Below, piece by piece: positions 3,031 through 59,140 of a DNA stretch of 64,000 bases (positions within the stretch are counted from its first letter, which is position 1; every line of letters begins with the position of its first letter). The notes beneath the pieces were generated by a model. That model ran no database searches, was not told where the DNA came from, and worked only from the letters and a program-made list of their open reading frames with translations. Both the position numbers and the translations under genes were made by a program. The DNA comes from a phage. The stretch lies in the sequence record PQ374922.1; one strand, 5' to 3'.

Positions 3031-3063
3031 TATACCTTTGTTCATAAATTTGATTAGTTCAGA

Positions 3064-3074: not shown

Positions 3075-3103
3075 ATATTGGACATCCTTTATGGGGTATT
3101 ATC

Positions 3104-6130: not shown

Positions 6131-6135
6131 TAAAC

Positions 6136-6166
6136 AAAACCCCGCTTCGGCGGGGTTAGTTTTTAC
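6136..6166 (+). terminator. Rho-independent terminator (aaaccccgcttcggcggggtt + T-tract)
   Basis: 8-bp GC stem, UUCG loop, T-run; same hairpin sequence recurs near 24378 and 31115. Confidence 0.7.
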
Positions 6167-6172
6167 TTATTA

Positions 6173-6430
6173 ATAATACTTTTTATATAGAGTTTACTGT
6201 TTGCATTACCCTTACTGATACAGCAGTTAAGGTAATAGTCTGACCTGATATGTTGAACATACCTAACTGTATACCATCCACCATGAAAGGGTCTGCTGAA
6301 CCTAGTGTGTAAGTAGCTAAAACGTTATCCCTGTTGGCTATATCTACACCCTGAACTTTGGTACTGGCATCTGAACCTACTATTGTAGTTCCATTGGTTC
6401 TCCTTGTTATACCTTTGTTCATAAATTTAT
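6173..6430. repeat. Copy A of ~240-bp intergenic direct repeat
   Basis: About 85% identical to 11305-11525 by eye; carries an intact 79-codon minus-strand ORF. Confidence 0.6.
6183..6422 (-). CDS. Small hypothetical protein (79 aa) encoded inside the repeat element; possibly a relic
   Basis: Intact ORF in copy A only; no convincing RBS; second copy is frameshifted. Confidence 0.25.
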   Translation of the reverse strand: MNKGITRRTNGTTIVGSDASTKVQGVDIANRDNVLATYTLGSADPFMVDGIQLGMFNISGQTITLTAVSVRVMQTVNSI

Positions 6431-6439
6431 TAGTTCAGA

Positions 6440-6450
6440 CTAAATACCCC
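6440..6450 (+). promoter_or_regulatory. Late-promoter-like motif CTAAATACCCC
   Basis: Same box and downstream TATGGGGTA complement as at 3064; leader nearly identical to that of the 3104 gene. Confidence 0.6.
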
Positions 6451-6467
6451 ATATTAGCAAATCCTCT

Positions 6468-8912
6468 ATGGGGTATCTTCAAATGACCAGAAACGTCGAG
6501 AGCATCTTTGGAGCGGTCGTAACAGCTCCGCACCAGATTCCATACACTTACACAGCAACGGGCGGAGAGAAGTTTATCTCCCTCCCTTTCTACCCTGTCA
6601 CGGGTATAGTCACAATCAACGGTGGTATGCAAGTTCCGTTAGACAACTTTGAAATCGATGGAAATACGTTGAATCTCGGGTGTGCATTATCCAAAGGTGA
6701 CGTTGTGTTCTGTCTGTTTGATAAGATTCTGTCTCCAGAAGATTATAAAACCGGGATTCGAATCTATAAGTTTCAGGCTATAGGAGGTGAAACCGAGTTC
6801 ACTCCTGATTACACATCTTATGGAGTCCAATCTCTTTATATCGGTGGTGAGTACAAAACACCCGAAATTGAATATTCCTATGACAGCACGACAGGGAAAG
6901 TGACTTTACAAACTGCGCTGACTGCAGGCGTTTGGGTAGTCGCTGAAATGTCTGTTAAACAACCGAATATCAGTCCGTTGTTTGACCGAAGTATTCAAGA
7001 AATCGCCCGTTCAGCTAATGTAAAAGATTCTGAAGTAATTCTTAGTACTGACACTACGCAATTATTGAATGGTAAAAAGATTGTCTACTCTGTTAGTGAG
7101 CAGAAGTCATATGGTTTACCTGTATTACCAGCGAATGTATATATTCAGTCTGTTAATGCAGGTAAGTTAACATATTCCCCTGGCGAAATTGTTGTTGATC
7201 TACTTCCTGTACCATCTTCAGTAAGAGATGAGCTGACTGCATATAAAGCGGATTTAGCTAGTGATTCCGGTGCAAGTAAGATTGGTATTAAGATTTCTTT
7301 GCCTGGGACAATTTCTCGTACATTGCAGGAACGGGCAGAAGATAGTGTTAGTGTCAAAGATTTTGGTGCAGTGCCTAATCTTACAACAGATAGTACTTAC
7401 GCCATTCAAGCTGCAATTGATGCGACTCCGTCTGGAGGTACTTTAGGTTTCTATGGCGGACCCTATAGGTTTGGTACTGTTACCGTGGACAAACCTATTA
7501 CACTAGTTGGAGATGCAGACTTGCAGTTTGAGTGTATTCGTATCAAAACAAGTAAGTTTCATAGTTTCTTGACAGGGACACTTACTGCTGCGAGATATGA
7601 CAACGCATGTCGTGCATTTCAAATATTGGCCTATGAAGACGGTAGAGACTATGAGGACATCAAGGTACATGGTGCACGTTTCGAGGGTTTCTTCTATAAC
7701 ACAGACTTCCGAGGTCGCTCTTACGATGCGTCAGAAAGCGATCCTACTAACAGAGTAGTTCGTGACACCTCTATTATGGGCTGTACTTCAGTTCAGCCTA
7801 AAGATGGTAAAGATAGAGGCCACTTTCAACACGTAGGTGTGACCAATGCCAAGTGCATAGGTAACTCGACGTATGGTGGCAAGAATGCTACTTCTTATAA
7901 CTTCATTAATGGTAACGGCTCTTTGGTGGTTATTGGTAACTATGACCATGACAATGAATATGGATCCTTAGAGATTGAGAATAACCAGATAAGCTACGGT
8001 GTTGTTACTGGTAATATCTTCCATAAACAGCTATGGATAGATGATACTAGCAACATTAACGTAATAGGTAACACCTGCACGGATAGGATTTTCATTACTG
8101 CACAATCTAACAACTCTGAGAACGTATCAGTAGTAGGAAACAATGTACCTCGCATCTACGTCAGTAAGTTTGGTCAAAGCCCAACAGGTCGTCACCGTAA
8201 CTTGACTATACGTGGCAACCATATCACTGGCAAGGATGTTCCTAACTGTATATTCTTAGATGATTCTATTGATTCCGCTTCTATTGAGGGTAATGATTGT
8301 TATGGTGTGTCTGGTGTTAGAGGTATAGCCATTACTCGCCATTCCGGTGCTAACTATACGGTGCGTCATAATAACTTACATGGCACTAACTTACTCTTTA
8401 GTGGTTCAGGCGGCAAAGTTTATAGTTATGACAACTTTGATGTTGGGGTTGATGAATCCCCTGTTATAAACAGAACTGACGCAATGCACATTGACAACCT
8501 TCTTCGTGTAAATGAAGAATACCTTGATTTGCCAGGAAAGTACCTATACAAATCTAAGTATGCAGGAGAAATTGCACAAGGTGGGTCAGTTACTATTGAG
8601 TTACCTGTATCAACAAGTGGTACTTTGTCTTTCCGTGGTCTTAGTCTGTGGGTTCTTATCCGTAACGTTTCTACAGGAAACTTTTCTTCCTATCGTGTCG
8701 ATGGAAGGCATGCAGTATTTGGCTCCTCTGTTACTGTTAGCTTTGGTGATAAATATGGAGCAGTAGGAGTAAATACTGGCGATATTACTGTTAGTGATGA
8801 TTCCTCCACAGCTAATCTTATTCGTATCAAGGTAATCAATGGGCACGTAGATCAAACAATGCAAGTGACAGTCATACCAGAGGTAACGAGCAGACTTGGG
8901 ACTGAAGAGTGA
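6468..8912 (+). CDS. Tailspike protein, pectate-lyase-like beta-helix type (true start may be ATG at 6483)
   Basis: 814 aa; anchor module SEVILSTDTTQLLNGKKIVYSVSEQKSYGLPVLPANV; VKDFGAV..TDSTYAIQAAIDA beta-helix entry motif. Confidence 0.8.
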   Translation: MGYLQMTRNVESIFGAVVTAPHQIPYTYTATGGEKFISLPFYPVTGIVTINGGMQVPLDNFEIDGNTLNLGCALSKGDVVFCLFDKILSPEDYKTGIRIYKFQAIGGETEFTPDYTSYGVQSLYIGGEYKTPEIEYSYDSTTGKVTLQTALTAGVWVVAEMSVKQPNISPLFDRSIQEIARSANVKDSEVILSTDTTQLLNGKKIVYSVSEQKSYGLPVLPANVYIQSVNAGKLTYSPGEIVVDLLPVPSSVRDELTAYKADLASDSGASKIGIKISLPGTISRTLQERAEDSVSVKDFGAVPNLTTDSTYAIQAAIDATPSGGTLGFYGGPYRFGTVTVDKPITLVGDADLQFECIRIKTSKFHSFLTGTLTAARYDNACRAFQILAYEDGRDYEDIKVHGARFEGFFYNTDFRGRSYDASESDPTNRVVRDTSIMGCTSVQPKDGKDRGHFQHVGVTNAKCIGNSTYGGKNATSYNFINGNGSLVVIGNYDHDNEYGSLEIENNQISYGVVTGNIFHKQLWIDDTSNINVIGNTCTDRIFITAQSNNSENVSVVGNNVPRIYVSKFGQSPTGRHRNLTIRGNHITGKDVPNCIFLDDSIDSASIEGNDCYGVSGVRGIAITRHSGANYTVRHNNLHGTNLLFSGSGGKVYSYDNFDVGVDESPVINRTDAMHIDNLLRVNEEYLDLPGKYLYKSKYAGEIAQGGSVTIELPVSTSGTLSFRGLSLWVLIRNVSTGNFSSYRVDGRHAVFGSSVTVSFGDKYGAVGVNTGDITVSDDSSTANLIRIKVINGHVDQTMQVTVIPEVTSRLGTEE

Positions 8913-9061
8913 TGCCATTAATCAAGTCAGTTAAGCAAAGTGCTGTACGCCGGAACGCAGAAGAACTCATCAAGGAAGAGTGTGACCCTAAGCAGGCTTA
9001 CGCCATTGCTAAGGATGTACAACGTCGTGCAATGAAGAAACCTTCTGTATCTTCTGCGTAA
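8912..9061 (+). CDS. Small hypothetical ORF (49 aa) translationally coupled to the upstream tailspike gene
   Basis: ATG overlaps the upstream stop (TGATG); basic helical-looking product; below the ORF-track size cut-off. Confidence 0.2.
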   Translation: MPLIKSVKQSAVRRNAEELIKEECDPKQAYAIAKDVQRRAMKKPSVSSA

Positions 9062-9356
9062 GCAGGTTAATATCTTAGTGTACACAAGGGCAGACCTATG
9101 ATAGCTCACAGCACACCTATGAGTGCCGCTCTGGAGTCTATGACTTGTTCCCTGACTATCTAGGTTTGCTCTTAGTGTATTCCAAGTATTAATATGAAAG
9201 GTTGGTGTAACATTGTAGGAGGGAATGGATGGTTATTGTATCTAGTAAGAGGAAAAGTCTAGATAAGATAATGCATACTGGCCTACGCTACCGTGTACTT
9301 ACCTAGTTATAAGACCCCGCTGAAGCGAGGTCTTCTAGAAAAACAAAGAGGTTGCT

Positions 9357-11264
9357 ATGAACGAGATGTTCTCTCAAGGTGGTAAAGGCTCTACGGGTAT
9401 TCTTACCAATATACAAGCCATTGCTCGTGCATGTAACGTAGCAGAAGGTAAAGTTATTCTCAGTACGAATACTAATACATTGCTAGATGATAAGACTGTA
9501 CTCTTCGATCGTAATGCTAAGAAGATATGGACTTTACCTACTCTCCCCTCCGGGGCAACCATTGCTAATGTAAATGGTGACCAATTAACCTATAACCCAG
9601 GAGGTATTACCGTTAGTCTACTTCCTGCACCAAATGACATTGCTGTACGAGTTAATGAAGCCATTACAGCAGTATATGACGAACTGGCTTCTAACACTGG
9701 CTCTAGTAAGGTTGGTCACATTACCGGACGTGTTGGTGAAGTTGCTCGCACTGTACAGGCTGCATTAGGTGATTGGGTAAGTCTGAAGGACTTTGGTGCA
9801 GTAGGTGATGGGATTACCGATGACACTGATGCTATTCAGGCTATGGTTGCTTGGGTAAACTCCCGAGCCAAATACTCTGCACCCATTTCTGTTATCTTTC
9901 CTGCTGGTCATTATAAGTACACTACTGGTATAAACTTTACACGCCCTGTAGCAGTATATGGTTTTCAGTCAGCTACTCTGGACTACTCAGGTACAGGTGC
10001 AGCAATGTACTTAGGTGACCCAACTCCAGAAGATGCACCTACTGCTGATAACTTTTATCAGTCTGAATACACTATAGAGGGTCTGCGATTCACTGGTGGT
10101 GTGCAAGCAGGTTTCGGTATTTTCATTAAGTCCTTCGTATTCACACCTAGAATCAGATACTGCATCTTTATGGACTATGGTAACTCTGCAACCTATGACA
10201 TCTATTCTCAGTATGAGAACTGGGATGGAATCATTGAGTGTTGTGAGAAACATACCTACTTCAGTACAGTAGCAACTGGTAGTTTCATAGCTCTCCTTGG
10301 CAAGAAGACTGATGGTAGTGCCTATGATGGTGGTAACTCACGATTTACCATACGTGACTGCTCAATGGGTGCATACGATAACCAAGACTTAGGTTACTTT
10401 GCATATATCAACTCTACATTGTGCCGTGTAATCGGAGGTAACGCACACCACTGTACCGGAGGTATTCTCCTTGGACCAAATGCTCACGGTGCTATTATTG
10501 ATGGATACTACACAGAGGTGAGTACAGCTGTACGACCTTGGATGGTTTCAGTGCTTAGTGACAAGACTAATCCTGCAAACTACCTTTTCCCACAGAGTGT
10601 ACGAATCCGTAACTGTTACATCAACATGCATAGCGAGAAGATAGGGAATAACGGTCGCATCATCGGAATGATGGATGGTAACGTTAAGTTACGTGATTGG
10701 GTAGTAGAGGATATTGCTGTTAGTACATTTGCTAATGGGCAGGTTCTGATTGATATGAACAACCTTGATGAACAGGTTAATAACACCTTTGCGCGAATTA
10801 ATCCTGTATTCATCCCTTATAACTCAGGTGCGGGTGCTAAATTCACTGTTGTCAATAACCCACCATTATCACCAAATGCATGGACATCCTCTGATGTTAT
10901 AGAAGGTACATGGACCCCTTCTGTAGGTGGTAATGCCACTTACAACATTCAGAAGGGTAAGTACCGTAAGGAAGGTCGTAAGGTAACAGTAGAGTTTGAT
11001 ATTCATATCAATACTATTGGTACAGGAAATCAGTCAGCAATTTTAGGTCTGCCTTTTGCGTGTGGTGATTCCACAGGTACAGGTAGTGTAAGCTACTATG
11101 CTGAACTTGCCTTACCTGTTTATGGTTTGTATATCCGAGTAGATGCACTAAGCTCCGATATTACAATCTCTGCATCCACAGCCTCAGCAGCGGGTATCTC
11201 TGGTTCTGTTGCAGCACTGGGGAATAATTCACGAATCATGGGTACATTGGTTTACTTTGTATAA
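9357..11264 (+). CDS. Tailspike protein, pectate-lyase-like beta-helix type
   Basis: 635 aa; N-terminal anchor module KVILSTNTNTLLDDKTVLFDRNAKKIWTLPTLP..QLTYNPGGITVSLLPAP; LKDFGAVGDGITDDTDAIQAMVAW motif; RBS aaagagg. Confidence 0.75.
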   Translation: MNEMFSQGGKGSTGILTNIQAIARACNVAEGKVILSTNTNTLLDDKTVLFDRNAKKIWTLPTLPSGATIANVNGDQLTYNPGGITVSLLPAPNDIAVRVNEAITAVYDELASNTGSSKVGHITGRVGEVARTVQAALGDWVSLKDFGAVGDGITDDTDAIQAMVAWVNSRAKYSAPISVIFPAGHYKYTTGINFTRPVAVYGFQSATLDYSGTGAAMYLGDPTPEDAPTADNFYQSEYTIEGLRFTGGVQAGFGIFIKSFVFTPRIRYCIFMDYGNSATYDIYSQYENWDGIIECCEKHTYFSTVATGSFIALLGKKTDGSAYDGGNSRFTIRDCSMGAYDNQDLGYFAYINSTLCRVIGGNAHHCTGGILLGPNAHGAIIDGYYTEVSTAVRPWMVSVLSDKTNPANYLFPQSVRIRNCYINMHSEKIGNNGRIIGMMDGNVKLRDWVVEDIAVSTFANGQVLIDMNNLDEQVNNTFARINPVFIPYNSGAGAKFTVVNNPPLSPNAWTSSDVIEGTWTPSVGGNATYNIQKGKYRKEGRKVTVEFDIHINTIGTGNQSAILGLPFACGDSTGTGSVSYYAELALPVYGLYIRVDALSSDITISASTASAAGISGSVAALGNNSRIMGTLVYFV

Positions 11265-11280
11265 CGCGTGACATTACTAA

Positions 11281-11310
11281 AAGCCCCCAATTAAGGGGGC
11301 TTTTCTTATA
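11281..11310 (+). terminator. Rho-independent terminator (aagcccccaattaagggggctttt)
   Basis: GC-rich stem plus T-tract after stop at 11264. Confidence 0.65.
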
Positions 11311-11525
11311 TAGAGTTTACCGTTTGCATTACCCTAATTGATACTGCTGTCAGGGTGATTACTTGCCCAGATATATTAAACATACCTAGTTGAATACCAT
11401 CCACCATGAAAAGGGTCAGTTGAACCAAGCGTGTAAGTAGCTAATACATTATCCCTGTTAGCAATGTCCGTTTTATACTAGCGTCTGAACCTACTACTGT
11501 AGTTCCATTGGTTCATCCCATTCTC
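11305..11525. repeat. Copy B of ~240-bp intergenic direct repeat (degenerate; internal ORF disrupted)
   Basis: Alignable by eye to 6173-6430; extra A in the homopolymer breaks the ORF found in copy A. Confidence 0.55.
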
Positions 11526-11635
11526 TTGCTGTACCACCACAAATAGCAGAGGTCTTGAATCCATGACCATAACCACAGAAAGATAATCAAAGACCCTTCG
11601 GACTTATTTCTTTCTATTCCTCGGTTGGTTGTATA

Positions 11636-11646
11636 CTAAATATCTC
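11636..11646 (+). promoter_or_regulatory. Late-promoter-like motif variant CTAAATATCTC
   Basis: About 30 nt upstream of ATG 11677. Confidence 0.45.
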
Positions 11647-11676
11647 TATAATGGCACCTATCGATGGAGCATCAAA

Positions 11677-14600
11677 ATGCAAGAAATGAACCTCAACCGC
11701 CGCCCATATTGGGATGACTGGAATCCAGAGAAGCGTTTTTCGCGCATCCTATTCCGCCCGGCACCTATCAAAGTTCAGACGCGTGAACTGAACCAGATGC
11801 AGACCATCTTCCAGGATCAACTGGAGAAACTTGGCAACCATCTGTTCAAAGACGGATCAATGGTTATCCCCGGCGGCCTGACGATCACCAATACTGCTGT
11901 GTCCATGAAGTTCACTCTGGCTGGTGGTAGTGAGTTCACTGATCTGGAAGGTATCTCCGAACTCTATGTTCTGGGCAAGGACAACAATGCGAAAGCACGC
12001 GTCCTGTCCTTGGAACGTTATCCAGCTGAGCCGGATACAATGTATGCCATCTTAGAGATGACTGAGAGTGGTAGTTCAGACGGTTTCGAAGCTGGCGACA
12101 ACCTATACTTCAACACCTATGACGTGAACGATAACTTCATCCGTGTCGGCTATGGTGTGGCCGATACTGTTGGTGGTTCGATTGTTGCTCGCATGACAAA
12201 GGGTGTTTATTTCGTTCGTGGTATGTTCCTGGATGTTGAACCAGCCACTCTGATCGTAGACAACGCATCGAACTCTACATCTCACCGCATTGGCTTCAAA
12301 GTTACAGAAACAATCGTGACCGAAGCAGAAGATGAAAGTCTGTTCTCCAATGCTCAGGGTACTCCGAACTCTAAAGCCCCTGGTGCGCATCGCCTGCGCG
12401 TCGACCTCGTGTTGTCTCGCTACGGTTATGATGAAGAAGTGGCCGACTTCGTTGAACTGGCGAAGGTGAAAGACGGTCGTGTTCAGTCCATGGTCACCCA
12501 GTCAACGTACAACATCCTCGAAGACGCCATGGCTCAGCGTACCTATGAGACCAACGGGGATTACAACGTCTCTACTCACCAGATCGACCTGCGCGAACAT
12601 CTGAAACAGAACAACAACGGCGGCGTTTACACTCCGGCCGAAGGTGGCGACGAAAGCAAATTCGTGGCGGTTATGAAGCCAGGGATATCCTACGTTCGTG
12701 GTCGTCGTATCGAAAACCTCGGCGAAGAGCTGGTCATAATTGACAAAGCCCGTGACACTGATATCCTGAACAACAACCCTGTGGCTGTTTCGACTGGCAA
12801 CTATCTGGTGTCCAAGAACTCCAAAGGGGTTCCGGTTGTCTCCCGCACAATCCGCTACAAGTTCCTGAACGCATCCAGCGATGTGCAGGCCACCGCCCTG
12901 CTGATTTCGGCAGAGCGCTCTGGTGCTGAATTCCGTCTGTATATGCGCGACCTGGTTGTGACTGGGGACATGGGCACGGTGACCAAAGTCGCTTATGAAG
13001 AAAGCGGCACAACCATGTTCTCTTGTGAACTGGAGTCCAATCAGTTCAGCCAGAGTTCAGCAATTGACCTGATCTTCCCTCTGCCTGTATTTGGTGTGAA
13101 GACTCTAGCACCTACAGGCACCATCGACATCAACTACACTGTCCTGCGGTCAAACAAGATCACGTTGAACGCCGCTGGTGCAGGCTCAATTTCTGCTCCT
13201 CTGGGTTACAGCTTCAGCCCTGAGTTTTCACTGTATTCCGCAGCGAAAGCAGATGGCACTGCAGCTCAGTTTGATATCTCTTCGGGACTGTCCCTGGCTG
13301 GTACTCCGGTTGGTTCAGCACTGCAGATTTCCCTGGGCGCGGGGTACGCCAACCAGTCTATCAACCTGTTGGCATTGATGGTCCGCACCACAGCGACGAT
13401 CAAGACCAAGACTGTTACCGAAGTCACCGAGACTGTGACGTTTACCGCGGCAGCCAGCGCACAACTTGGGAACCATGATGGTTACAAGCTGATCAGCGTG
13501 AAGAACGCAAATGGCGCTGACGTCACCTCTAACTTCACTCTGGACGGCGGTCAGCGTGATGCTGCATACTACCTTTCTAACCTCATATCGTCCACAGGAG
13601 CCATTTCAGGGACGTTCACGGTGGTGTATCAGTATTTCGCTCACAGCTCTGGTGATTTCTTCACAGCGGACTCCTATTCGTCCATCAACTACCCAGACAT
13701 CCCGAACTATGTTTCATCCAGTTCTGGTACTGTGTATGGGTTGGCCGACAGTCTGGACTTCCGTCCCAAGATCACCAGCGGAGCGTCTGACACGGACATG
13801 GTTCGCCCGAACACCGCGATCATCCTAGATGCAGAGTACTATCTGCCTCGTATTGATGCTGTGTATCTGGCAGACAACGGTGTGTTCAACGTTGCTCGTG
13901 GTGTGAGTTCCAACAACCTGGCTTCCCCTGCGATCCCAGACAACGGCATGCGCCTGTATGAATTGATGATCCCACCATACACGGCCAACATTGACGACAT
14001 CCAGATTCGTACTATCGACAACCGCCGCTACACGATGCGCGATATCGGTAAACTGGAGACCCGTATCTCCAATGTCGAATATTACACCTCACTGTCTCAG
14101 CTGGAATCCTCGGCGATGTCACAACAGGTGTTCGATCCAATTACTGGCAACCCGCGCTTCAAGAACGGTATCGCAGCAGACCCGTTCAAAGACTTCCGTC
14201 TGATCGACGATTTGTCTGCAGACTGGGTGGGTTCAATCGACACTGACAATGGTCGCCTGCGTCCGTTTGTTCAGCAGAACGCGATTGACCTGACGCCAGT
14301 CGGTTGGAACAACGTTCAGGATGGCATGGTTGTATGCAACTACACCCGTGAGATCTCTGTCCGCCAGGACTATGCAACCACGACCATCAACGTGAACCCG
14401 TATGCGGTGTTCAACTGGGAAGGTTTCTTGAAGCTGAACCCAACTACTGATTACTGGTTTGAGAACTACTATGTTACTCCACGTGTGATCAACGAAACGA
14501 TCAACACCCGTGGTGCGATCAAAGAAGGTTCTGTGTATGGCACATGGCGTACTGTGTCCGTGTCTGAGCGTGTGTGGGAACCGCATGGTGCAGGTGGTGT

Positions 14601-16564: not shown

Positions 16565-16813
16565 ATGCGTGGTGTAAAAGTACAAGGGCATGCATCGATG
16601 ATGAGAAGTAGCTCTTGCCCTGGGGCTATCATCTGCACAGACAATGCTGCCGGTTTGGCAGCACTGAACGCTCGTCGAAATCAGGAAGAAAAGGACAAAA
16701 CTATTGCAGCGCAGGCAGCGCAAATAGATCAACTGACAGCGATGGTACAACTCATGGCAGAACACCTCGGGATTGAACTCCCGTCAGGAGGCCAAGATGG
16801 CAACCCAAACTGA
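16565..16813 (+). CDS. Hypothetical protein (82 aa)
   Basis: ATG with RBS agagga; overlaps next gene by 17 nt. Confidence 0.5.
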   Translation: MRGVKVQGHASMMRSSSCPGAIICTDNAAGLAALNARRNQEEKDKTIAAQAAQIDQLTAMVQLMAEHLGIELPSGGQDGNPN

Positions 16814-17135
16814 CACTGTGATCGATGTGAAAGCGATCCTCACCGGGGTGCTGACGGCGACGATAGTCTCTGTTGGCTCGGTTGTTTGGATGATGGGTAA
16901 ATTTGAGAATCGCCTTGATGTGGTTGAGCGTGACTCCAACAAGGTCGACCTAATCCTCACCAAGGTGAACGATATGAATGAGAAGATTGCTGTGTTAAAC
17001 ACAGACGTTAACTACGTCAAGCAGAACGTTGCTGAGTTGAAACTCAATAGCAACAGTCTATCCGACGACGTTCGCACTTTACGTATCACCGTCGCTGATA
17101 TCCAGAGCAACAAGGGGAATGGCAATGGCCGTTAA
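16797..17135 (+). CDS. Hypothetical protein with N-terminal hydrophobic segment and C-terminal coiled coil (112 aa)
   Basis: RBS aggagg before ATG 16797; hydrophobic stretch ILTGVLTATIVSVGSVVWMMG followed by heptad-like repeats. Confidence 0.5.
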   Translation: MATQTDTVIDVKAILTGVLTATIVSVGSVVWMMGKFENRLDVVERDSNKVDLILTKVNDMNEKIAVLNTDVNYVKQNVAELKLNSNSLSDDVRTLRITVADIQSNKGNGNGR

Positions 17136-35875: not shown

Positions 35876-36283
35876 TCAGTGCTCCCGCGCCGGAAGAACT
35901 CCCACTGGTTCGATGCCATCCAACAGCAGGGAGTTCACACCCACATTACTCAGTCTGATCAAGATCGTTCCCCCTGGGTTAACTTCAAAGATACTCATCC
36001 CATTTCCAACCGCGTCGTTGTTAACGAACACACCCTGAGTTGCGATTCGTACTGGTTTATCTGAGTCATTCATGATCTTGAACGTCACGATTATATCTGA
36101 TGTTGTATCCAGTCGCCCAACCATGTGTTGCTTCAGCTTGGCATGGAATGATGGATTAAAAGTGATAATGATGCTGTTATTCTGAGAGTAATAAATACTT
36201 GCTGATAGGTATGGAATCTTCCCTTCATCGCCATGCCGCAGGAGAGGAATTGTGGTCTTCCAGTATGGCTTGAGGGTGCTCAT
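35876..36283 (-). CDS. Hypothetical protein on minus strand (about 135 aa; start uncertain)
   Basis: Only the C-terminal part of the 271-codon antisense ORF looks protein-like; convergent with the gene ending 35875; weak RBS. Confidence 0.3.
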   Translation of the reverse strand: MSTLKPYWKTTIPLLRHGDEGKIPYLSASIYYSQNNSIIITFNPSFHAKLKQHMVGRLDTTSDIIVTFKIMNDSDKPVRIATQGVFVNNDAVGNGMSIFEVNPGGTILIRLSNVGVNSLLLDGIEPVGVLPAREH

Positions 36284-36554
36284 GTTCTCATCAAAGCAAC
36301 CTAAAGGTACGAGCTTCTGGAAGGGCTGGAACTCTTGCACGATGATGTCCAGCATACCCTTGTTACAAGTGGGAACGCTGGCCGACAACGTCACAGGTAC
36401 AGTGCGCACTTCTGGGTTCCAGAGTTCGGAAACAGAAATTATTGGCGTGACAAAGATGCGACAGCTCGTAAACAAGAGCATCGAGCATGCCAACAACAAT
36501 CTACTGATCCCGCGCATCAGGGTCACAAAATATCTCCACAGCAAAGGTGCTATT

Positions 36555-51896: not shown

Positions 51897-54090
51897 ATCA
51901 TTAGAATTTAAGAATGCGGTTGCGACTGCTGCCCCGTCCAACCATGTAATCGTTGTAGACATTTCCGGCTCTATGTACCGTGCGCTCCCTGAAGTCCGCA
52001 AGCACCTGAAGGAGAACCTGCCATCCCTGGTGAAACCGGAAGACACTGTGAGTGTTCTATACTTCTCATCCAAAGGCGACTTTGGTACTGTGTTCGCTGG
52101 CCGTCAGATCAATGCAGCATCCGACCTGAGCGAAATCAACAATCTGATTGACCGCTTCCTGAAACCGTCTGGTTGCACTGGCTTTGTTGAGCCGTTGAAA
52201 CTGGCGATGGACACTGCTCGTGGCCTGAAGAAGCCTGGCTATGTCAACAACCTGGCGTTCATGACTGACGGGTATGACAACTGCTGGCGTACCAACGAAA
52301 TTCTACTGGTTGCTGAGACCCTGCCATTTGCTTTCGATAACATTACATTTATTGAATATGGCTGGTACTGTAACCGCGAACTGCTGGCGCAGATGGCCGA
52401 ACGCTCTGGTGCTACTCACGTGTTTGCCGAAGGTCAGACCGAATACCAGACCGAACTGGAAAACGTGCTGAAGTCATCAGTGCCGAAGGTGAAAGTTGAT
52501 GTCCCAGTCATCTACACCCATGCCATCTACGTCGAAAACGGTGTGGCAACAGTACTGGCGGTGCAGGACGATGACTCTCACCCGGTCGGCTATGTGAGCA
52601 TCCCTGAGAGCATCACCAAGCTGTGGGTTGTAAACCCTAACATGATCGACCAGCTTGATGCGCTGGCGGATATCCAGGCGGCATACGTGCTGGCGTTCTA
52701 CGGCGTACACATCATGGACGCGGACCTGGTGTGGGCTGCACTGAAGAAAACGGGTGACGTTCGCTTCATCAAACAGTACAGCAACTGCTTCACCAAGCAG
52801 GACTACTCCAACATCAAGAACGATCTGGTTCAGGCGATTGTTGACGACCAGCTGCGCGGCGTTGACGGTATTGACTATGACCTGGTTCCGGCTGAAGATG
52901 CGACCACCGTCGTTGATGTGCTGACGTACCTGGCTGAAGCTGGTGTGCCTGTTGCTACCAAGCATCCGATGTTCTCCTATAAGAGCATCGGGCGCGGTAC
53001 TGTGCAGAAAACCGACGACACCGAAGACAAGCTGGCAGAACAGATCGCGAATGCTCAGTCCAAAGAAGAGCGTAAAGCCCTGGCTCTCAAGCTGGCAGAA
53101 CACGAAGAGTGGAACCCGACGTTCGAACCTACCAACGACCTGGGTGTTGTGCCAATCAGCGATTTGGTCTATAACTCCGAGCGCCCGAACATCAGTGTGC
53201 GTACAATTCAACACGGTACTGTGGCTGTGCCTGAATTCGCACAGAAGAAGTTTGGCCTGCCTGAAGAACTGGACACTTTCCAGTGGCGCAACTACACCAT
53301 CGTCAAAGACGGCATCATCAACGTGAAGACTCTGCCGTTCAAGGCTGATATCGAAGTTGTACAGAAGCTGATCGAAATGGGCGTCCACGTGTTTGGTGGT
53401 CCGGAAGTGTTCATCCTGAACCTGGAAAGCGTACCACTGGTCAACCGCGCCATGGTCAAGAACATCAGTGCTGCTCAGTTCTTTGCGGATAATGTCCGTT
53501 TGGAAGCCCTGAAAGGCAAGCAGAAGGTGCTGAAGTTCTATCGAGACGCCCTGGTTGGTAAGGGTAACGCCAAAGGCCTGGCAGTACAGTACGGTGCTGA
53601 GGCGGCCGAGTTCCTGTCCTCCTACGGTATCCGCGATTACGGCTTCTCACCGAAGACTGAGACCAAAGAGTCTACCGACTTCTACATGAGCCGTGAGCTG
53701 AACGTTAAGATCGCCGGGGCGTCTTCACTACCGAGCATCGCGGCAGTACAGAAGAAGATCGCAGAGAATAAGAAACTCAATGCTGGTGACTTGTTTATCG
53801 CCAATGCTCTGAAAGAGTACGAAGCATTCGTGAAGTCTCCTATGATCACTGCCGTGCCTGAAGCCTTACAGAAACAGCTGATCGAAAACTGGATCGACGC
53901 TGCTGCCAAGGCGGCCATCACCGAAGTCCGTGCCCTGAACAAGACACTGTCTAAAGTGGTGTATGGTATCGTTGCTGGCCACGGCTGGTTCACCGACCTC
54001 GACCTGGAAGAGTCCACCATGGAAGTTGAAGTGGATGGCGTGAAGTACAAGGTCACTGCCGAACTGACAGAGAAAGAAATCAAAATCTAA
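51889..54090 (+). CDS. von Willebrand factor type A (vWA) domain protein (733 aa)
   Basis: N-terminal MIDAS-like VIVVDISGSMY (DxSxS); long C-terminal region unrecognised; start chosen at second in-frame ATG. Confidence 0.6.
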   Translation: MIESLEFKNAVATAAPSNHVIVVDISGSMYRALPEVRKHLKENLPSLVKPEDTVSVLYFSSKGDFGTVFAGRQINAASDLSEINNLIDRFLKPSGCTGFVEPLKLAMDTARGLKKPGYVNNLAFMTDGYDNCWRTNEILLVAETLPFAFDNITFIEYGWYCNRELLAQMAERSGATHVFAEGQTEYQTELENVLKSSVPKVKVDVPVIYTHAIYVENGVATVLAVQDDDSHPVGYVSIPESITKLWVVNPNMIDQLDALADIQAAYVLAFYGVHIMDADLVWAALKKTGDVRFIKQYSNCFTKQDYSNIKNDLVQAIVDDQLRGVDGIDYDLVPAEDATTVVDVLTYLAEAGVPVATKHPMFSYKSIGRGTVQKTDDTEDKLAEQIANAQSKEERKALALKLAEHEEWNPTFEPTNDLGVVPISDLVYNSERPNISVRTIQHGTVAVPEFAQKKFGLPEELDTFQWRNYTIVKDGIINVKTLPFKADIEVVQKLIEMGVHVFGGPEVFILNLESVPLVNRAMVKNISAAQFFADNVRLEALKGKQKVLKFYRDALVGKGNAKGLAVQYGAEAAEFLSSYGIRDYGFSPKTETKESTDFYMSRELNVKIAGASSLPSIAAVQKKIAENKKLNAGDLFIANALKEYEAFVKSPMITAVPEALQKQLIENWIDAAAKAAITEVRALNKTLSKVVYGIVAGHGWFTDLDLEESTMEVEVDGVKYKVTAELTEKEIKI

Positions 54091-54096
54091 TCCAAC

Positions 54097-54121
54097 GGGC
54101 GGGGCAACCCGCCTTTCTTTG
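54097..54121 (+). terminator. Terminator-like hairpin (ggcggg-gcaa-cccgcc + T-tract)
   Basis: After stop at 54090. Confidence 0.6.
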
Positions 54122-54132
54122 GGAGAAGTAGC

Positions 54133-54456
54133 ATGAGCAGTAAACCAACATATGTTGAAGTCATGCGTCATCTGGCTCAGTACGCCACTGACAATCTGAA
54201 TATGGATCTGTGGCGTGACGATGACAAGCGCAAATTGCTGGACGACGTGGCATCTCAGAACGAGGACGCCCTGGACAAGCTGGCTGGCCTCCGTACCAAG
54301 AAAGACCTCGGCGGTGATGAACTGGATGCCATCGAAATTGTAATGGAACTAGAAGAAGAGTTCAACGTCGAAATCGACGACGGTTGGCTGGGTAGTAAAG
54401 GTGATGACCCGACCATGGGTGAACTCGCTGAACTCGTGGTTGCCCTGCGCAAATAA
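54133..54456 (+). CDS. Acyl carrier protein-like protein with Glu replacing the phosphopantetheine-attachment Ser
   Basis: KDLGGDELDAIEIVMELEEEFNVEI aligns with the E. coli ACP core [25 protein letters not shown]; residue 63 (54319-54321) is GAA/Glu where ACP has Ser. Confidence 0.65.
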   Translation: MSSKPTYVEVMRHLAQYATDNLNMDLWRDDDKRKLLDDVASQNEDALDKLAGLRTKKDLGGDELDAIEIVMELEEEFNVEIDDGWLGSKGDDPTMGELAELVVALRK

Positions 54457-54460
54457 CAGA

Positions 54461-54490
54461 AGCCCCCAACAAACGTTGGGGATTTTTACT
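54461..54490 (+). terminator. Rho-independent terminator (cccccaac-aaac-gttggggg + T-tract)
   Basis: 8-bp stem plus T-run after stop at 54456. Confidence 0.65.
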
Positions 54491-54564
54491 TTTAGGGGTT
54501 TACTTCCTCTAAGGAATGTCCTATTATTCAATAACTGGCGAACGATGGCGTTCACCAGATTGAG

Positions 54565-54819
54565 ATGAAGGATTACATTATGAAACTGCCTGGTTACGTT
54601 GACATCTATGCCCGCCTCGATAAAGACGGCAATCTGAAAGCCAAAGAATTGACGCACATGATTATCAAGTACGGCGTCGACACTGTGGTCGAAGTTGAAA
54701 ACGAACAAGTTAAAGGTGAGTATGTCAAAATTAAAGGGTGTGGCCTCAGAACAAACCCGACTTACTTTGTGGGAGTTCACCTTGACACAGGTAAAGAAGT
54801 CGTGGAGATGGTGGCATAA
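54565..54819 (+). CDS. Hypothetical protein (79-84 aa; start 54565 or 54580)
   Basis: Second ATG has better RBS (aagga). Confidence 0.45.
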   Translation: MKDYIMKLPGYVDIYARLDKDGNLKAKELTHMIIKYGVDTVVEVENEQVKGEYVKIKGCGLRTNPTYFVGVHLDTGKEVVEMVA

Positions 54820-55064
54820 TGTCAAATAAGAACAAGATGGTAGAAACCTCAGTAGAGATTGATCGCAATTGGGGATTGCTCCGCGCTAAAGGGTTCCGCC
54901 GTGTGTATGCGACCAAAGAAGTCTACGCACAGCGTCGTGACGTTATCATCAGCAAGAAAGGCAAAGAGTGGGTTGCTGAAGAAGTTGATGTCGAGACAGG
55001 CATCGTGGGAAAGGTAAAGGCCAAGGCCGCGATCCTCTTCGCTCTTCTGAAGCACATCAGTTAA
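54819..55064 (+). CDS. Hypothetical protein (81 aa)
   Basis: TAATG stop-start overlap with the upstream gene. Confidence 0.45.
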   Translation: MSNKNKMVETSVEIDRNWGLLRAKGFRRVYATKEVYAQRRDVIISKKGKEWVAEEVDVETGIVGKVKAKAAILFALLKHIS

Positions 55065-55123
55065 TTCTATAACTTTGGGCGGGGTATGATTACCCCGTCT
55101 ATTTGAAACCAAGAGACTATATC

Positions 55124-55498
55124 ATGAAAAAGTTAATCCTCGCTGTTGCCCTGCTGGGCGCTTCCTTTGCTGCTGTTTCCGCCCCTCCTGTCATCACCGG
55201 AGTGTCTACCAACGGTGTTTATGCTTTCAAGGCGTATGGCCAAGACCTCGTTCTGTATAAGAACGGGAAGATGATTGAGCGCTGCGTATCAGACGACGTG
55301 AATCGTGGGATCGACAATCAGGGCAGCCCATACGTCCTGGACATCTATTCCTGCTCTAACGGGACGAAGTCCTTTGGCGTCAAGACCTTTGGCAACGTCG
55401 CCGACGGTGGCTGGGGCTTCATGTTCGAAACCCGCAACCACCACCCGGTCAAGACCATGCAAGAAGAGTTCTTGATCTCTGTCGGGGGTACGTTATGA
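55124..55498 (+). CDS. Exported protein with cleavable signal peptide (124 aa precursor)
   Basis: MKKLILAVALLGASFAAVSA followed by PP; two Cys in mature part; ORF track begins at TTG 55103. Confidence 0.55.
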   Translation: MKKLILAVALLGASFAAVSAPPVITGVSTNGVYAFKAYGQDLVLYKNGKMIERCVSDDVNRGIDNQGSPYVLDIYSCSNGTKSFGVKTFGNVADGGWGFMFETRNHHPVKTMQEEFLISVGGTL

Positions 55499-55782
55499 CA
55501 CCATCAGAGAGAAGTTCTATCAAGGAGATGATCAGAGACAAGGCGTGTGTTGACCATACTCAGTCAGAGAACATCTTGCGCCTGATGGTAATAAAGAACG
55601 ATATCGATAACAGCCGATTCCAATCAGCGCTCTACGGGCTTCTCGAGTTCGTTCTCCGCCAGGCTGATCTTGGTCCTGTCGGTACTCTTGATGATCTAAC
55701 CAAGCTGTTGAACACGGGCGGGGAAACTTTCGACGCCGCTCGTATCCTGATTGACGGTAGACCTGAAGAAGACGAGGTATAA
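55495..55782 (+). CDS. Hypothetical protein (95 aa)
   Basis: ATGA overlap with upstream stop. Confidence 0.45.
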   Translation: MTPSERSSIKEMIRDKACVDHTQSENILRLMVIKNDIDNSRFQSALYGLLEFVLRQADLGPVGTLDDLTKLLNTGGETFDAARILIDGRPEEDEV

Positions 55783-55942
55783 TTTGGATAAAGAATTGGT
55801 TTGGGAAATTGTGAAGGGTGTCCTAGTAATAATCGCGGTGGTTTTCATCTTGGGTGGGAACTTCTTCTATTGGTTATTCCGATCCGACCAGAAACGTCGC
55901 GAACGCAAGGAGAAAGAGAGAAAGGATCGATGGATGCGCTAA
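55751..55942 (+). CDS. Possible tiny membrane protein (non-ATG start, position uncertain)
   Basis: Hydrophobic segment VLVIIAVVFILGGNFFYWLF followed by a basic tail; no in-frame ATG before the hydrophobic segment. Confidence 0.2.
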   Translation: MTVDLKKTRYNLDKELVWEIVKGVLVIIAVVFILGGNFFYWLFRSDQKRRERKEKERKDRWMR

Positions 55943-55974
55943 CTAAGGGATAACCCTATATCCCGAGGTGTGTC

Positions 55975-56424
55975 ATGTTCCTTACATCTTTTATTGACTG
56001 GTTGAACATCATTAACGGCCTGAGGATTCCTGTTGGGAACCTCGGGCTTTCGCGTTCTTCTATGCCACAAATCGATGCCGACAAACAAGAAGATTTTCAC
56101 AAATATCTTGAAGACAACGGCGTGTCCATAGATGCTGTACAAGTGCCCATCAAAATGCTTCGTCTCACCCAGAACGAAATCAACAAGATGAAGGTCTGGA
56201 AGATCATGAAGAACATCAGAAATAAGAAACCTATGGGTCGAGTTTGGGTGTCTTCTGACAATTACGTTGTTGACGGTTCTCACCGATTTGTCGCTGCGTT
56301 GAACATGGACGGCAAACAGCGCATGAAGGTCTACAAAGTTGATTTGCCAGCGATGGAATTTGTTAAACTCGCTAAACAGTTTCAGGGTGTGCGATACAGA
56401 ACGGTCAGCGATACTCGTTTCTGA
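55975..56424 (+). CDS. ParB/sulfiredoxin-like nuclease-domain protein
   Basis: 149 aa; VVDGSHRFVAAL resembles the ParB N-terminal DGxHR motif; RBS gagg. Confidence 0.55.
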   Translation: MFLTSFIDWLNIINGLRIPVGNLGLSRSSMPQIDADKQEDFHKYLEDNGVSIDAVQVPIKMLRLTQNEINKMKVWKIMKNIRNKKPMGRVWVSSDNYVVDGSHRFVAALNMDGKQRMKVYKVDLPAMEFVKLAKQFQGVRYRTVSDTRF

Positions 56425-56503
56425 ATACGATAGTTTATTGAATCCCTTTACTCATCATGGTGAGCCGCCTATCATTTCATCCAATGAAATAAGGAGAATC
56501 ACC

Positions 56504-57190
56504 ATGAAACGTTTAATCCTCGGGGTTGTGCTGGCTGGTCTGGCATTACCCGCCGCTGCCAAGCTGAACTCCACAGGTGATAAACTGTGGTCCGACCTTT
56601 CCTATTGTGCTGGGTTCTCCCAGGCGGTTGCCATCGACAAGTCTGGTTCCATAGAGAACTTCGCTGAACTCTGGAACACAGGCAACGTCTCCACTGCTGT
56701 CATCAATGCCGGAATTGAGTTCAACCGTTACAAACAGGGAGCCTATAACCTCAAAGGCTACCTCAATGACGACGAATTTAACCGTGGAGGCATGGAGGCT
56801 GGCGATTTGATCATGACTGGGCGTATGGGCACCCAAGGCCGAATGACCGTAAGACAGTGCCGTTCGCTCCCTTCTCCGGCATTACAGAAGGGTGTGCAGG
56901 TTGGTCGCCGCCACCTGAACCTTATCAACGATGGCAACCAGTGCATCAAAGTATTCGAATACAGCGCTACGCAGACCTCTGATCGCGTCCTGAAGAAGGA
57001 ATGGCGCACCCGCGCTCTTGGTCTCAGAGCCTGGCTGGTTGAGAACGATTATTACTTTGAAGACAGGGTTCAGAACGGTCTGAAAGACCTGGCCACGAAT
57101 CTGAGCGTGAACCTTGATGATCCCCGCATGTCGCGCGAACTCCAGCAGACTCGTGTTGACTGCGACAATATGATGAAGGAGAACGAGTGA
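56504..57190 (+). CDS. Exported protein with signal peptide (228 aa precursor)
   Basis: MKRLILGVVLAGLALPAAA followed by K; RBS aaggaga; ORF track begins upstream at 56339. Confidence 0.55.
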   Translation: MKRLILGVVLAGLALPAAAKLNSTGDKLWSDLSYCAGFSQAVAIDKSGSIENFAELWNTGNVSTAVINAGIEFNRYKQGAYNLKGYLNDDEFNRGGMEAGDLIMTGRMGTQGRMTVRQCRSLPSPALQKGVQVGRRHLNLINDGNQCIKVFEYSATQTSDRVLKKEWRTRALGLRAWLVENDYYFEDRVQNGLKDLATNLSVNLDDPRMSRELQQTRVDCDNMMKENE

Positions 57191-57516
57191 TGAAATGTAA
57201 AATCCTGCTCTTGTTGGTACTGATAGCCGGGTGTGTAAATGCCGCGCCACCGTCTAAACTGAACACATGTGTGGCATGGATGGAGACGTATCAGCAGTTC
57301 CACCCAGATGACAAAGACACATCTATCCTCCTGTCCGACTTCGAGGGGGAGCTGAAGCGCCTTGATCTGTTCAGTGTTGATCAGATAGAGAATGCGCTGG
57401 ATCTTCCCATGATGCTGACTGCGGCTGACAACAGTACACAAACGAAGAAAGACCTGATGTATTGCCGGGGGATTGCCCAGGACTTTGTCGGATTTCAAAA
57501 TAAAGTTTCGGGTTAA
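57190..57516 (+). CDS. Predicted lipoprotein (108 aa precursor)
   Basis: Signal MKCKILLLLVLIAGC with lipobox LIAGC; start overlaps upstream stop. Confidence 0.6.
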   Translation: MKCKILLLLVLIAGCVNAAPPSKLNTCVAWMETYQQFHPDDKDTSILLSDFEGELKRLDLFSVDQIENALDLPMMLTAADNSTQTKKDLMYCRGIAQDFVGFQNKVSG

Positions 57517-57555
57517 AATTTAGCCCTACAATGTGAACTGAAGGAATACACTGTG

Positions 57556-58422
57556 ATGCTCCTGACCAAAACAATCGCTGCGGCGATTATCGAAAAGAAT
57601 AAGGCTTTTGCCCCCAACGCAGCCAAAGTTATGTTGGTACACGAAGACGCTCGCGTGATCTTCGCCGAGAAGTTCGAGATGGGCGCGAAGTTCTGGTATG
57701 CCGACAACTTGCGTGAGAGCAAACTTCAGGGTATCATCCACAAACTGACTCTGGTCGCCAAGCGTAATGACCAGGGTGACTGGGTCGGCGTTTCTGACTT
57801 CAGTACGAAGATCACCCCAAAGGCTCCGCTTTCTCGTCAAGAGCGCATTCTGGAAGCCCAGGAAAAGCTGCGTGCGGCTCGGAGTACCCCAAAGGCGAAA
57901 CCAGATGCAAGCCCTGTCATCAAGCCAGCGGTTGTTCCTAAGTCCAAATACCTCCCGCCCGTGAGTCAAAAGGCTGTGGAGCAATTGGTCGAGAAGCGCA
58001 AGGGTGACGTTGTGATGAAGTCTGACTCTTCAGTGGAGCCGTTCAAGCCGGATCCAGCAGAAGTACAGGCGCTGGCAGAAAAGGTAAAGAATTCACAATT
58101 CATTTCCTTGCGTGAACTTGAACCGCCTACTCGCCGTCGTGTCGCCAACGAGCTGTTTGTGTCGTTCAGGTCGGATGGCAAGATCGTCCTGTGCAAAGCC
58201 CTGCGCGATGCAATCCCTTGGACAACTCTGAACATGATGGTCACTCGCGACTTCAAGCGTTTTGGTATCATGCAAGGCAAGGACTACAACGTCAACCAGA
58301 GCGGGACTTATGTTAATCGCGCCATGTGTGACAAACTGACCTTCCCAGAAGATACCGGAACGATCCGTGTCGTTCTGAACTGGGACGACAAGCTGAACAT
58401 GTATGTTGGCGATTTCCAATAA
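57556..58422 (+). CDS. Hypothetical protein (288 aa)
   Basis: RBS aaggaa; Lys/Pro-rich central linker. Confidence 0.5.
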   Translation: MLLTKTIAAAIIEKNKAFAPNAAKVMLVHEDARVIFAEKFEMGAKFWYADNLRESKLQGIIHKLTLVAKRNDQGDWVGVSDFSTKITPKAPLSRQERILEAQEKLRAARSTPKAKPDASPVIKPAVVPKSKYLPPVSQKAVEQLVEKRKGDVVMKSDSSVEPFKPDPAEVQALAEKVKNSQFISLRELEPPTRRRVANELFVSFRSDGKIVLCKALRDAIPWTTLNMMVTRDFKRFGIMQGKDYNVNQSGTYVNRAMCDKLTFPEDTGTIRVVLNWDDKLNMYVGDFQ

Positions 58423-58478
58423 TCAATAACCTCGGGCGGCTTATCATAAAGCTGCCCTTTCATTTGAGTGACTATATC

Positions 58479-58940
58479 ATGGAAAAACTTTATTCTATTA
58501 TCGTCGGTCCTGATCCTGACGGATTATTCTTCGCCCCGTTGTCTTATATTGCCCACGCCCGTATCGGTAGCCATTACGCATATTGCACACGTGGCCACGA
58601 CGGTTCCAATATCCTCCATTATAGCCGCCTGAACGATTTCCTGGCACTTCAACCAGAAGATGTTGTGTTGGCGCGTCGCGTGTTCATCGACTTCAACGCG
58701 ATGCACAACAACGAAATCGACGCTCGCTATCATGCCATGCGTTCTATGGAAGGGGGAGACTGCATTTATCGTATCGACCATTTTAGTGAGTTTACCCAAT
58801 CTATTGATTGGTTCGTTTCAGAAAAGACGTTGGGTGAAAGAATCGTCACAACTCCGTGGGCACATGCGGACAACTTCGTGTGTCTACCGATGCGTACAAA
58901 GAAGTCGACAATCTGTGCAACAAGTTCCGCATCTCGGTGA
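58479..58940 (+). CDS. Hypothetical protein (153 aa)
   Basis: First ATG in frame (ORF track begins at TTG 58464); 3' end overlaps the next ORF in another frame. Confidence 0.45.
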   Translation: MEKLYSIIVGPDPDGLFFAPLSYIAHARIGSHYAYCTRGHDGSNILHYSRLNDFLALQPEDVVLARRVFIDFNAMHNNEIDARYHAMRSMEGGDCIYRIDHFSEFTQSIDWFVSEKTLGERIVTTPWAHADNFVCLPMRTKKSTICATSSASR

Positions 58941-59140
58941 CCTGTAATCAAGACCTGGGCGAAGAGATACAATGGACAGCTGAGTCTCCTCATTTCAGTG
59001 GCCTGGTGATGACGGCCGAAACCCGTTCCCGTGCTGTTGTCCAGTTAGTACTCTGGGCGTTCTACCAGCGCACCCCGTTCTCATACATGGGACAGAAAGA
59101 GATTGATGAACTCCTGAAGTCTCACGCGGTGGAGGTATGA
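58856..59140 (+). CDS. Hypothetical ORF overlapping the 3' end of the previous gene (possible frameshift continuation or separate gene)
   Basis: Protein-like translation in the +1 frame relative to 58479-58940; no RBS before ATG 58856. Confidence 0.3.
   Translation: MGTCGQLRVSTDAYKEVDNLCNKFRISVTCNQDLGEEIQWTAESPHFSGLVMTAETRSRAVVQLVLWAFYQRTPFSYMGQKEIDELLKSHAVEV

Follow-up and report, generated by a model that had tools for sequence, protein, structure and literature searches.

What two small exported proteins encoded by overlapping genes do in the phage-infected cell is the question raised by a 64,000-nucleotide stretch of phage DNA (sequence record PQ374922.1; this whole stretch is called the window here). 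A sequence-only reading of the window had picked out three open reading frames (ORFs), P1 (55124-55498, 124 amino acids), P2 (56504-57190, 228 amino acids) and P3 (57190-57516, 108 amino acids), as three consecutive exported proteins that might form an envelope-acting or superinfection-exclusion module. All three ORFs lie where it had placed them, on the + strand. Public annotation, for its part, names P2 and P3 as the two halves of a spanin. We propose instead that P2 and P3 are a soluble periplasmic pair, tethered to the outer membrane in the clade of this phage, with a role in superinfection exclusion or envelope protection, and we give this reading as a whole a probability of about 0.35.

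The best megablast matches to a query of positions 54000-59000 were the Escherichia phages YX22, A221, PC3 and PH4 (about 98% identity, genomes of 150-156 kb), among 247 phage records matched. Judged by these matches, the source is an E. coli phage of the Vi01-like group (Ackermannviridae, Aglimvirinae).

Signal peptides were called by sequence rules together with conservation across orthologs. The N-termini of P1 (MKKLILAVALLGASFAAVSA-PP), P2 (MKRLILGVVLAGLALPAAA-KL) and P3 (MKCKILLLLVLIAGC-VNA-AP) each combine a basic n-region, a hydrophobic core of 10-12 residues and small residues at -3/-1, with 12-residue Kyte-Doolittle means of 2.6, 2.9 and 3.4, respectively. The signal peptides are retained in all orthologs although their sequence drifts. 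When all six frames of the window were scanned for export signals, two other annotated genes were matched, one for a DUF7424 lipoprotein and one, at about 16797-17135, for a type II membrane protein. By these measures the signals of P1-P3 exceed chance, in agreement with the signal peptide that each protein had been assigned. Export of all three to the envelope is likewise well supported, by the conserved signal peptides, by invariant Cys pairs in the mature parts and by the absence of P2 and P3 from the main table of proteins published for CsCl-purified Sajous1 virions.

The signal peptide of P2 spans amino acids 1-19 (56504-56560), with predicted cleavage at LPAAA↓K, and leaves a mature part of 209 amino acids with an isoelectric point (pI) of 6.8. 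Its hydrophobic core of 12 residues is followed by a Pro and then by an invariant A-x-A↓K; the core itself varies among 16 close homologs, all of which keep A17 and A19. The uncharged run measures 11-17 residues in 10 diverse homologs, and the best 19-residue Kyte-Doolittle mean of P2 is 1.84, against 2.63 for lambda Rz and 2.66 for a neighbouring 52-amino-acid membrane protein. In more distant homologs, too, the signal peptide always closes with a -3/-1 site (...STANA↓G in Kevin, ...PVHA↓R in Bue1, ...SAWS↓E and ...HASA↓A in two metagenomic lineages). Because of the invariant AxA, the uncharged run of this length and the low 19-residue mean, we read P2 as a periplasmic protein that is cleaved on export; within what rules and conservation can tell, it is secreted and not membrane-anchored. 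Cysteines C35 and C220 are present in every form read, and C119 and C147 in all full-length forms. The P2 slot of Miltonvirus and Nezavisimistyvirus is taken by a protein of 134-165 amino acids, which retains the N-terminal domain (motifs S-Y-C-A-G-F and G-G-M-x-G-D-x-x-M-x-G) and the C-terminal Cys. Residues ~117-203 are missing from these short forms, which suggests that this part of P2 is an inserted subdomain bearing its own Cys pair.

P3 of the source phage carries a lipobox, I12-A13-G14-C15 (Cys codon 57232-57234), which has Val at +2 and passes a lipobox scan, and, four residues past the lipobox Cys, a signal peptidase I-type site, V-N-A18↓A19-P. The mature part has about 90 amino acids, a pI of 4.4 and 4.4% Pro; C27 and C92 are invariant and a C-x-A-W-x-x-T-Y-x-x-x-H face is conserved. 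The AlphaFold2 model is a four/five-helix bundle, with a predicted local distance difference test score (pLDDT) of 79.7 and a predicted template modelling score (pTM) of 0.68, and P3 is thus predicted to be an acidic, disulfide-bonded helical bundle.

Most orthologs of P3 are built differently at the N-terminus. That of Vi01, MRNIIFLLFFSMLASFQVMA↓TP, has no Cys, and Cys-free N-termini are also found in Limestonevirus PP35 (...GYVAGAYA↓AP), Taipeivirus Magnus (...WASNALA↓VP), Miltonvirus Kevin (...TGAAQA↓AG), Nezavisimistyvirus Bue1 (...TVTASA↓QP) and two divergent metagenomic lineages (L010 and L011). The lipobox occurs in 5 of 35 full-length P3 clusters at 90% identity (48 of 202 member sequences) and in 3 of 21 loci from IMG/VR, and all forms that bear it belong to the immediate clade of the window; one variant, 91% identical, has AGS in place of AGC. 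The mature region is under strong constraint, with a ratio of nonsynonymous to synonymous substitution rates (dN/dS) of 0.025 against PP35, and dN in the signal peptide is 0.45-0.8. On this distribution, the lipid anchor of P3 is a recent, clade-specific gain and the VNA↓AP site is ancestral. The third protein had been called a lipoprotein from its LIAGC lipobox, which stands for the source phage and falls for most orthologs, as 30 of the 35 clusters and 18 of the 21 loci are without it.

P2 and P3 are translationally coupled, as had been supposed: the P2 stop TGA (57188-57190) and the P3 ATG (57190) have one A in common (TGATG; 1-nt overlap), and the Shine-Dalgarno sequence AAGGAG of P3 (57176-57181, + strand) lies within the 3' end of P2, 8 nt upstream of the P3 start. 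P1, on the other hand, does not belong to a three-gene module with them. The three exported proteins are not consecutive, since three genes (for proteins of 95, 52 and 149 amino acids) sit between P1 and P2, and only 105 phage records contain P1, whereas P2 and P3 occur in about 280. It is present in 10 of the 21 IMG/VR loci and missing from Vi01, Kevin and Bue1. The signal peptide of P1 covers approximately amino acids 1-19/20 and its mature part, of about 104 amino acids, has two invariant cysteines, C54 and C77. Cleavage at AVSA↓PP would put a Pro at +1, a residue that signal peptidase I rejects in this position, and the more likely sites are thus S19↓A20 and A16↓A17. Taken by its distribution and position, P1 is a separate, independent accessory secreted protein, assigned to PHROG 5474 with no functional label.

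The pair itself is about as widespread as the helicase gene beside it: P3 was found in 282 phage records, full-length P2 in 271 and the neighbouring helicase, at an identity of at least 60%, in 281. The order ParB-like gene, P2, P3 is kept in all 7 reference loci and all 21 IMG/VR loci, the overlap between P2 and P3 is 1-4 nt in the 11 of 11 loci for which both coordinates were read, and the ParB-like gene, at 62-100% identity, is the invariable upstream neighbour. Conservation of P2 is extreme among phages that infect Salmonella, E. coli, Klebsiella and Dickeya, with 94% identity to Vi01 and 84% to Magnus and a dN/dS of 0.035-0.078 in the mature region; the helicase has 83-84% identity to other Kuttervirus phages (EP75, aagejoakim, FEC14 and SS9). 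By these counts and rates, P2 and P3 belong to the core gene set of Ackermannviridae with enterobacterial hosts and are under strong purifying selection. In the Vibrio relative K471 the ParB-like gene is retained and immediately precedes the helicase, but P2-P3 are missing, and no Vibrio phage record with P3 was detected. A sequence search among 1.84 billion proteins gave 10 representatives of the family, the 21 IMG/VR loci all come from Ackermannviridae contigs of 150-160 kb, and no relatives outside the Ackermannviridae were found in either collection. No host or plasmid copies appeared in the E. coli genomes and plasmids searched. Searches of P1-P3 against Pfam, NCBIfam and PADLOC gave no match, nor did profile searches of PDB sequences with shallow and diverse alignments of each protein or a fold search with the P3 model.

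How, then, did the pair come to be called a spanin? RefSeq and many GenBank records name P3 'Rz-like spanin' or 'o-spanin' and P2 'i-spanin', and a 2024 comparative paper likewise uses the i-/o-spanin names. In PHROGs, P3 belongs to phrog_3843, 'Rz-like spanin', and P2 (PHROG 4260), like P1, to a family with no functional label. The pair of phage Marshall, 97-98% identical to ours, is entered in SpaninDB as a 'separated' i-/o-spanin, SIS/SOS (Kongari et al. 2018, PMC6139136). The same database gives 0 coiled-coil segments, 35% helix and 12% strand for Marshall P2, atypical of its class, and 0 coiled-coil segments and 56% helix for Marshall P3, an outlier among the SOS o-spanins shown (PMC6139136). 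The survey itself lists Vi01, Maynard, SFP10, CBA120, PhaxI, ECML-4, AG3, SJ2, SJ3 and RC-2014 as spanin-less (PMC6139136), and the same two genes are present in several of these phages. The Marshall genome announcement reports no lysis experiment, and the annotators of Maynard wrote merely 'conserved hypothetical lipoprotein'. The label traces to a 2013 student annotation and then spread via SpaninDB and PHROGs; because the Marshall paper holds no lysis experiment and the Maynard label differs, we regard it as a propagated annotation with no experimental basis.

The likeness to two-component spanins (lambda Rz/Rz1; the T4 PseT.3/PseT.2 architecture) is real in outline. The two genes are adjacent and overlap, with the would-be i-spanin first, P2 has an N-terminal hydrophobic segment, and P3 of the source phage has a lipobox with an outer-membrane sorting residue, the Val at +2. 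The anatomy of the proteins is unlike that of spanins, however. An i-spanin has an uncleaved N-terminal transmembrane domain and a coiled-coil periplasmic domain, whereas P2 has by our rules a cleavable signal peptide and, going by the values for the Marshall protein, no coiled coil, and it shrinks to 134-165 amino acids in two genera. An o-spanin has a conserved lipobox and a short Pro-rich domain with little secondary structure, whereas P3 has no lipobox in Vi01 and in Limestone-, Taipei-, Milton- and Nezavisimistyvirus and is predicted to fold as an acidic helix bundle. As neither partner is anchored in these orthologs, no membrane-spanning, membrane-fusing complex is possible there, and the pair is still maintained under strong purifying selection. 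P2-P3 thus does not look like a spanin. The sequence-only reading had said that none of the three proteins resembles one, which is right on features, although the orthologs carry the database labels described above.

A lipobox scan of all frames in the window and in 60-156 kb of PC3 returned only P3, the DUF7424 protein and a 113-amino-acid protein, PC3_000177, and none of the three genes adjoins a gene for a type II membrane protein. This result agrees with the spanin-less listing of the family (PMC6139136). One other protein of the window has an anatomy nearer to that of an i-spanin than P2 has: the 112-amino-acid protein at 16797-17135 (+ strand; PHROG 3961) has an N-terminal transmembrane segment at about amino acids 13-34, followed by a coiled-coil-like region with weak matches to LPP, XhlA and other coiled-coil Pfam families. 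No lipoprotein gene adjoins it or lies inside it.

The previous observations lead us to the following proposal. P2 and P3 would be a translationally coupled, Sec-exported, signal-peptidase-processed and disulfide-bonded periplasmic pair, most likely made in equal amounts and acting together as a periplasmic complex. In the source clade only, a tether would probably hold this complex to the outer membrane on its inner face; alternatively, cleavage at VNA↓AP may free P3 there as the soluble form of the other genera. Mechanistically, the complex would bind and block a highly conserved periplasmic target, either a phage-tail/lysozyme component or an envelope component of the Enterobacterales. Such a block would guard the infected cell from secondary infection or from lysis from without, in the manner of T4 Sp and Imm or T5 Llp. 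Among the functions considered we tentatively rank a protective or exclusion role first: the pair is periplasmic and lies in a non-late context, T4 and T5 provide precedents, and exported genes cluster around it in other lineages.

That clustering is seen just downstream of the P3 ortholog in divergent Ackermannviridae lineages. It comprises a 69-amino-acid protein with two transmembrane domains and a Band_7/SPFH lipoprotein in L010 (7028-8028), a 110-amino-acid signal-peptide protein in L011 (2745-3077), and in Bue1 (L008, 3954-4733) a 259-amino-acid protein labelled 'lipoprotein' by annotation only.

Of the known exclusion proteins, T4 Spackle (Sp, gp61.3) offers a parallel to P3, as a small, helical, periplasmic protein with a signal peptide in a T4-like phage with a tail lysozyme. 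The T4 Sp gene sits among replication genes, as P2-P3 do. The parallel stops at similarity, which was found neither in the sequences of P2 and P3 nor in the fold of the P3 model, and at number, since P2-P3 are two coupled proteins and Sp is one. Exclusion lipoproteins of the T5 Llp/Cor type resemble the source-clade P3 in being small phage outer-membrane lipoproteins that could mask an envelope component. They differ in that the lipid anchor of P3 is not conserved, a partner protein is present and homology is lacking; in addition, the primary receptors of these Ackermannviridae are polysaccharides, far more variable than P2-P3. No PADLOC model matched P1, P2 or P3 in sequence, nor did T4 Sp and Imm or T5 Llp, and the P3 model had no fold match to Sp, Imm or Llp. 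A 'superinfection exclusion protein' annotated nearby in Vi01 was considered as a clue and set aside: it is P22 gp17-like and cytoplasmic (PHROG 1510), and it has no match in the window at 59.1-59.7 kb.

The non-late context rests on two observations. P1-P3 are surrounded by a replication-gene block with clamp-loader, RegA, helicase, RNase H and gp55-like genes, and the region is free of a motif that marks the morphogenesis genes. This motif, CTAAATAcc, occurs 10 times in the window against 4.7 expected, always on the + strand and between 3064 and 38309; 9 of the 10 copies precede an ATG of the morphogenesis-gene region (3-38 kb) by no more than about 60 nt, often with a short hairpin after the motif. 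We regard these sites as candidate late promoters. None is found at 38-64 kb, including near P1-P3. A similar motif has reportedly been proposed as the late promoter of these phages, a point that the literature searched did not confirm. The T4 late motif TATAAATA is not enriched. From the replication-gene block and the missing candidate late-promoter motif, expression of P2-P3 before the late phase appears likely. Scans for sigma-70 promoters and terminators gave background level only.

Several points weigh against this proposal. Known exclusion genes are usually variable and accessory, whereas P2 is among the most conserved genes of the region, so that a core function in the lytic cycle would fit better; this conservation also keeps alive the idea of a lysis role that needs no anchor. 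Complex formation is suggested by gene coupling alone, and timing, target and phenotype are steps that we infer. Modelling of P2 by AlphaFold2 on an alignment of 16 sequences reaches a pLDDT of only 34, and a literature search found no experiment on the pair and no transcriptome paper for the family.

The best-surviving alternative, though a doubtful one, is that P2-P3 serves host-envelope takeover or counter-defence, inhibiting or redirecting a conserved periplasmic enzyme or a stress or defence pathway of the Enterobacterales. The pair is confined to phages of this order and is missing from K471 even though the ParB-like gene and the helicase are kept there, and the extreme conservation of P2 across phages of four host genera would fit a shared host target, as would the non-late placement. 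The Vibrio absence may merely be divergence, however, and neither a homolog in bacteria, plasmids or E. coli genomes nor a PADLOC model match points to such a target.

Less probable still, and in our view a long shot, is an anchor-independent device for outer-membrane disruption, a soluble lysis accessory that would act after the endolysin and loosen the outer membrane or its attachment to peptidoglycan. The family has no recognised spanin, and it is not alone in this: genomes with no identifiable spanin make up about 13% in the spanin survey (PMC6139136) and 15% in the phiKT preprint, with phiKT gp28 as one alternative, and another lysis route must therefore exist. A pair that is core and more conserved than the replicative helicase would suit an essential step of the lytic cycle, and an outer-membrane target would suit the fact that one clade has acquired an anchor in that membrane. 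The disruptin phiKT gp28 likewise comes from phages that are listed without a spanin, and P2-P3 could fill the same gap. However, gp28 is described as a cationic antimicrobial peptide (phiKT preprint), whereas P2 and P3 are larger, Sec-exported and neutral or acidic; with mature parts of 209 and 90 amino acids and pI values of 6.8 and 4.4, neither is a small cationic amphipathic peptide. The annotated holin and endolysin genes are not nearby, and no late-promoter-like motif is present. K471 has neither P2-P3 nor a canonical lipoprotein spanin in the 75% of its genome that was scanned (13-131 kb), so the two do not show a complementary distribution. Should P2-P3 nevertheless prove to be such a device, which we consider improbable, it would constitute a third mechanistic class beside spanins and disruptins, a disulfide-bonded periplasmic heterocomplex that need not span both membranes, to which a lipid anchor was added secondarily in one clade.

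Similarly improbable is a periplasmic regulator of the phage cell-wall enzymes or of lysis timing, whether as an antiholin-like sensor or as an inhibitor of prematurely exported endolysin. Lysis of T4 is controlled through the periplasmic protein RI; the phages studied here are T4-like, with rIIA/rIIB and an rI.-1-like gene, and P3 is a small helical periplasmic protein in keeping with the RI precedent. However, neither P2 nor P3 has a sequence match, and the P3 model no fold match, to RI or to the periplasmic domain of holin T, and the annotated holin of the family, at 53-56 amino acids, has no periplasmic domain for a sensor to bind. An analogy of P2 and P3 with T4 holin T and antiholin RI was also tried and dropped, as P2 has no cytoplasmic N-terminus or true transmembrane domain and fold support is lacking.

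The least likely of the readings considered is the classical one, a two-component spanin that bridges the periplasm and fuses both membranes at the last step of lysis, for which gene order, the source-phage lipobox, the SpaninDB and PHROG 3843 entries and the failure to find another, canonical spanin pair in the window or at 60-156 kb in PC3 weigh little beside a cleaved P2, a folded P3 with 4% Pro and orthologs in which both partners are unanchored.

The main value of this analysis lies in the correction of a widely propagated annotation, carried by many records and by PHROG 3843. About 280 sequenced Vi01-like phages have P2-P3, many of them candidates for therapy or biocontrol. If the spanin label is wrong, the whole family is left with no known way to breach the outer membrane, and a strongly conserved periplasmic complex is left with no assigned role. 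Either outcome would be informative, be it a new exclusion or envelope system or a new lysis mechanism.

The three genes between P1 and P2 are all on the + strand. The first, for a 95-amino-acid protein with no export signal (55495-55782; PHROG 4458, no functional label), overlaps the P1 stop with its start (ATGA), and its conservation varies between genera. The second encodes the 52-amino-acid single-pass membrane protein (55784-55942; PHROG 14464, 'membrane protein'), with its start taken as annotated in PC3 and Maynard; it has one transmembrane helix and a Lys/Arg-rich C-terminal tail (RSDQKRRERKEKERKDRWMR), a shape that is holin- or Imm-like, and it is accessory, being found in 8 of 21 related IMG/VR loci. 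The third is the ParB-like gene (55975-56424), for a predicted cytoplasmic protein of 149 amino acids with a weak ParB-like match (PHROG 2859). Upstream of P1, between it and the preceding gene for an 81-amino-acid protein, lies an intergenic stem-loop (GCGGGGTA-tgat-TACCCCGT, 55079-55098, + strand), possibly a weak terminator or RNA-stability element, which the terminator scan missed because its T-run is short. The long + strand block to which the region belongs also encodes a vWFA protein, an acyl carrier protein, an HU-like protein, the helicase, RNase H, a gp55-like late sigma factor and gp46/47-like nucleases.

The DUF7424 protein (35876-36526, - strand) has 216 amino acids, a lipobox and a full-length DUF7424 match (E 4e-57), and it is the only other lipoprotein candidate of the window; it is the ortholog of Maynard_69, which also bears the name 'conserved hypothetical lipoprotein' and sits beside the tail tube gene. 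In PC3, PC3_000177 (L034 28727-29068, - strand; 113 amino acids) has a lipoprotein-like N-terminus (MKLNKILLVCALAFSTTAC) and lies beside DNA polymerase genes. Downstream of P3, a PHROG 5426 gene (58464-59140, + strand) that is one coding sequence of 220 amino acids in PC3 is split here into two ORFs of 158 and 94 amino acids; the cause is a net -1 frameshift near position 58870, which means that the gene is a pseudogene or that the sequence contains an error. Finally, the GC content is 0.42-0.47 in positions 1-12000 of the window against 0.48-0.53 in the remainder.

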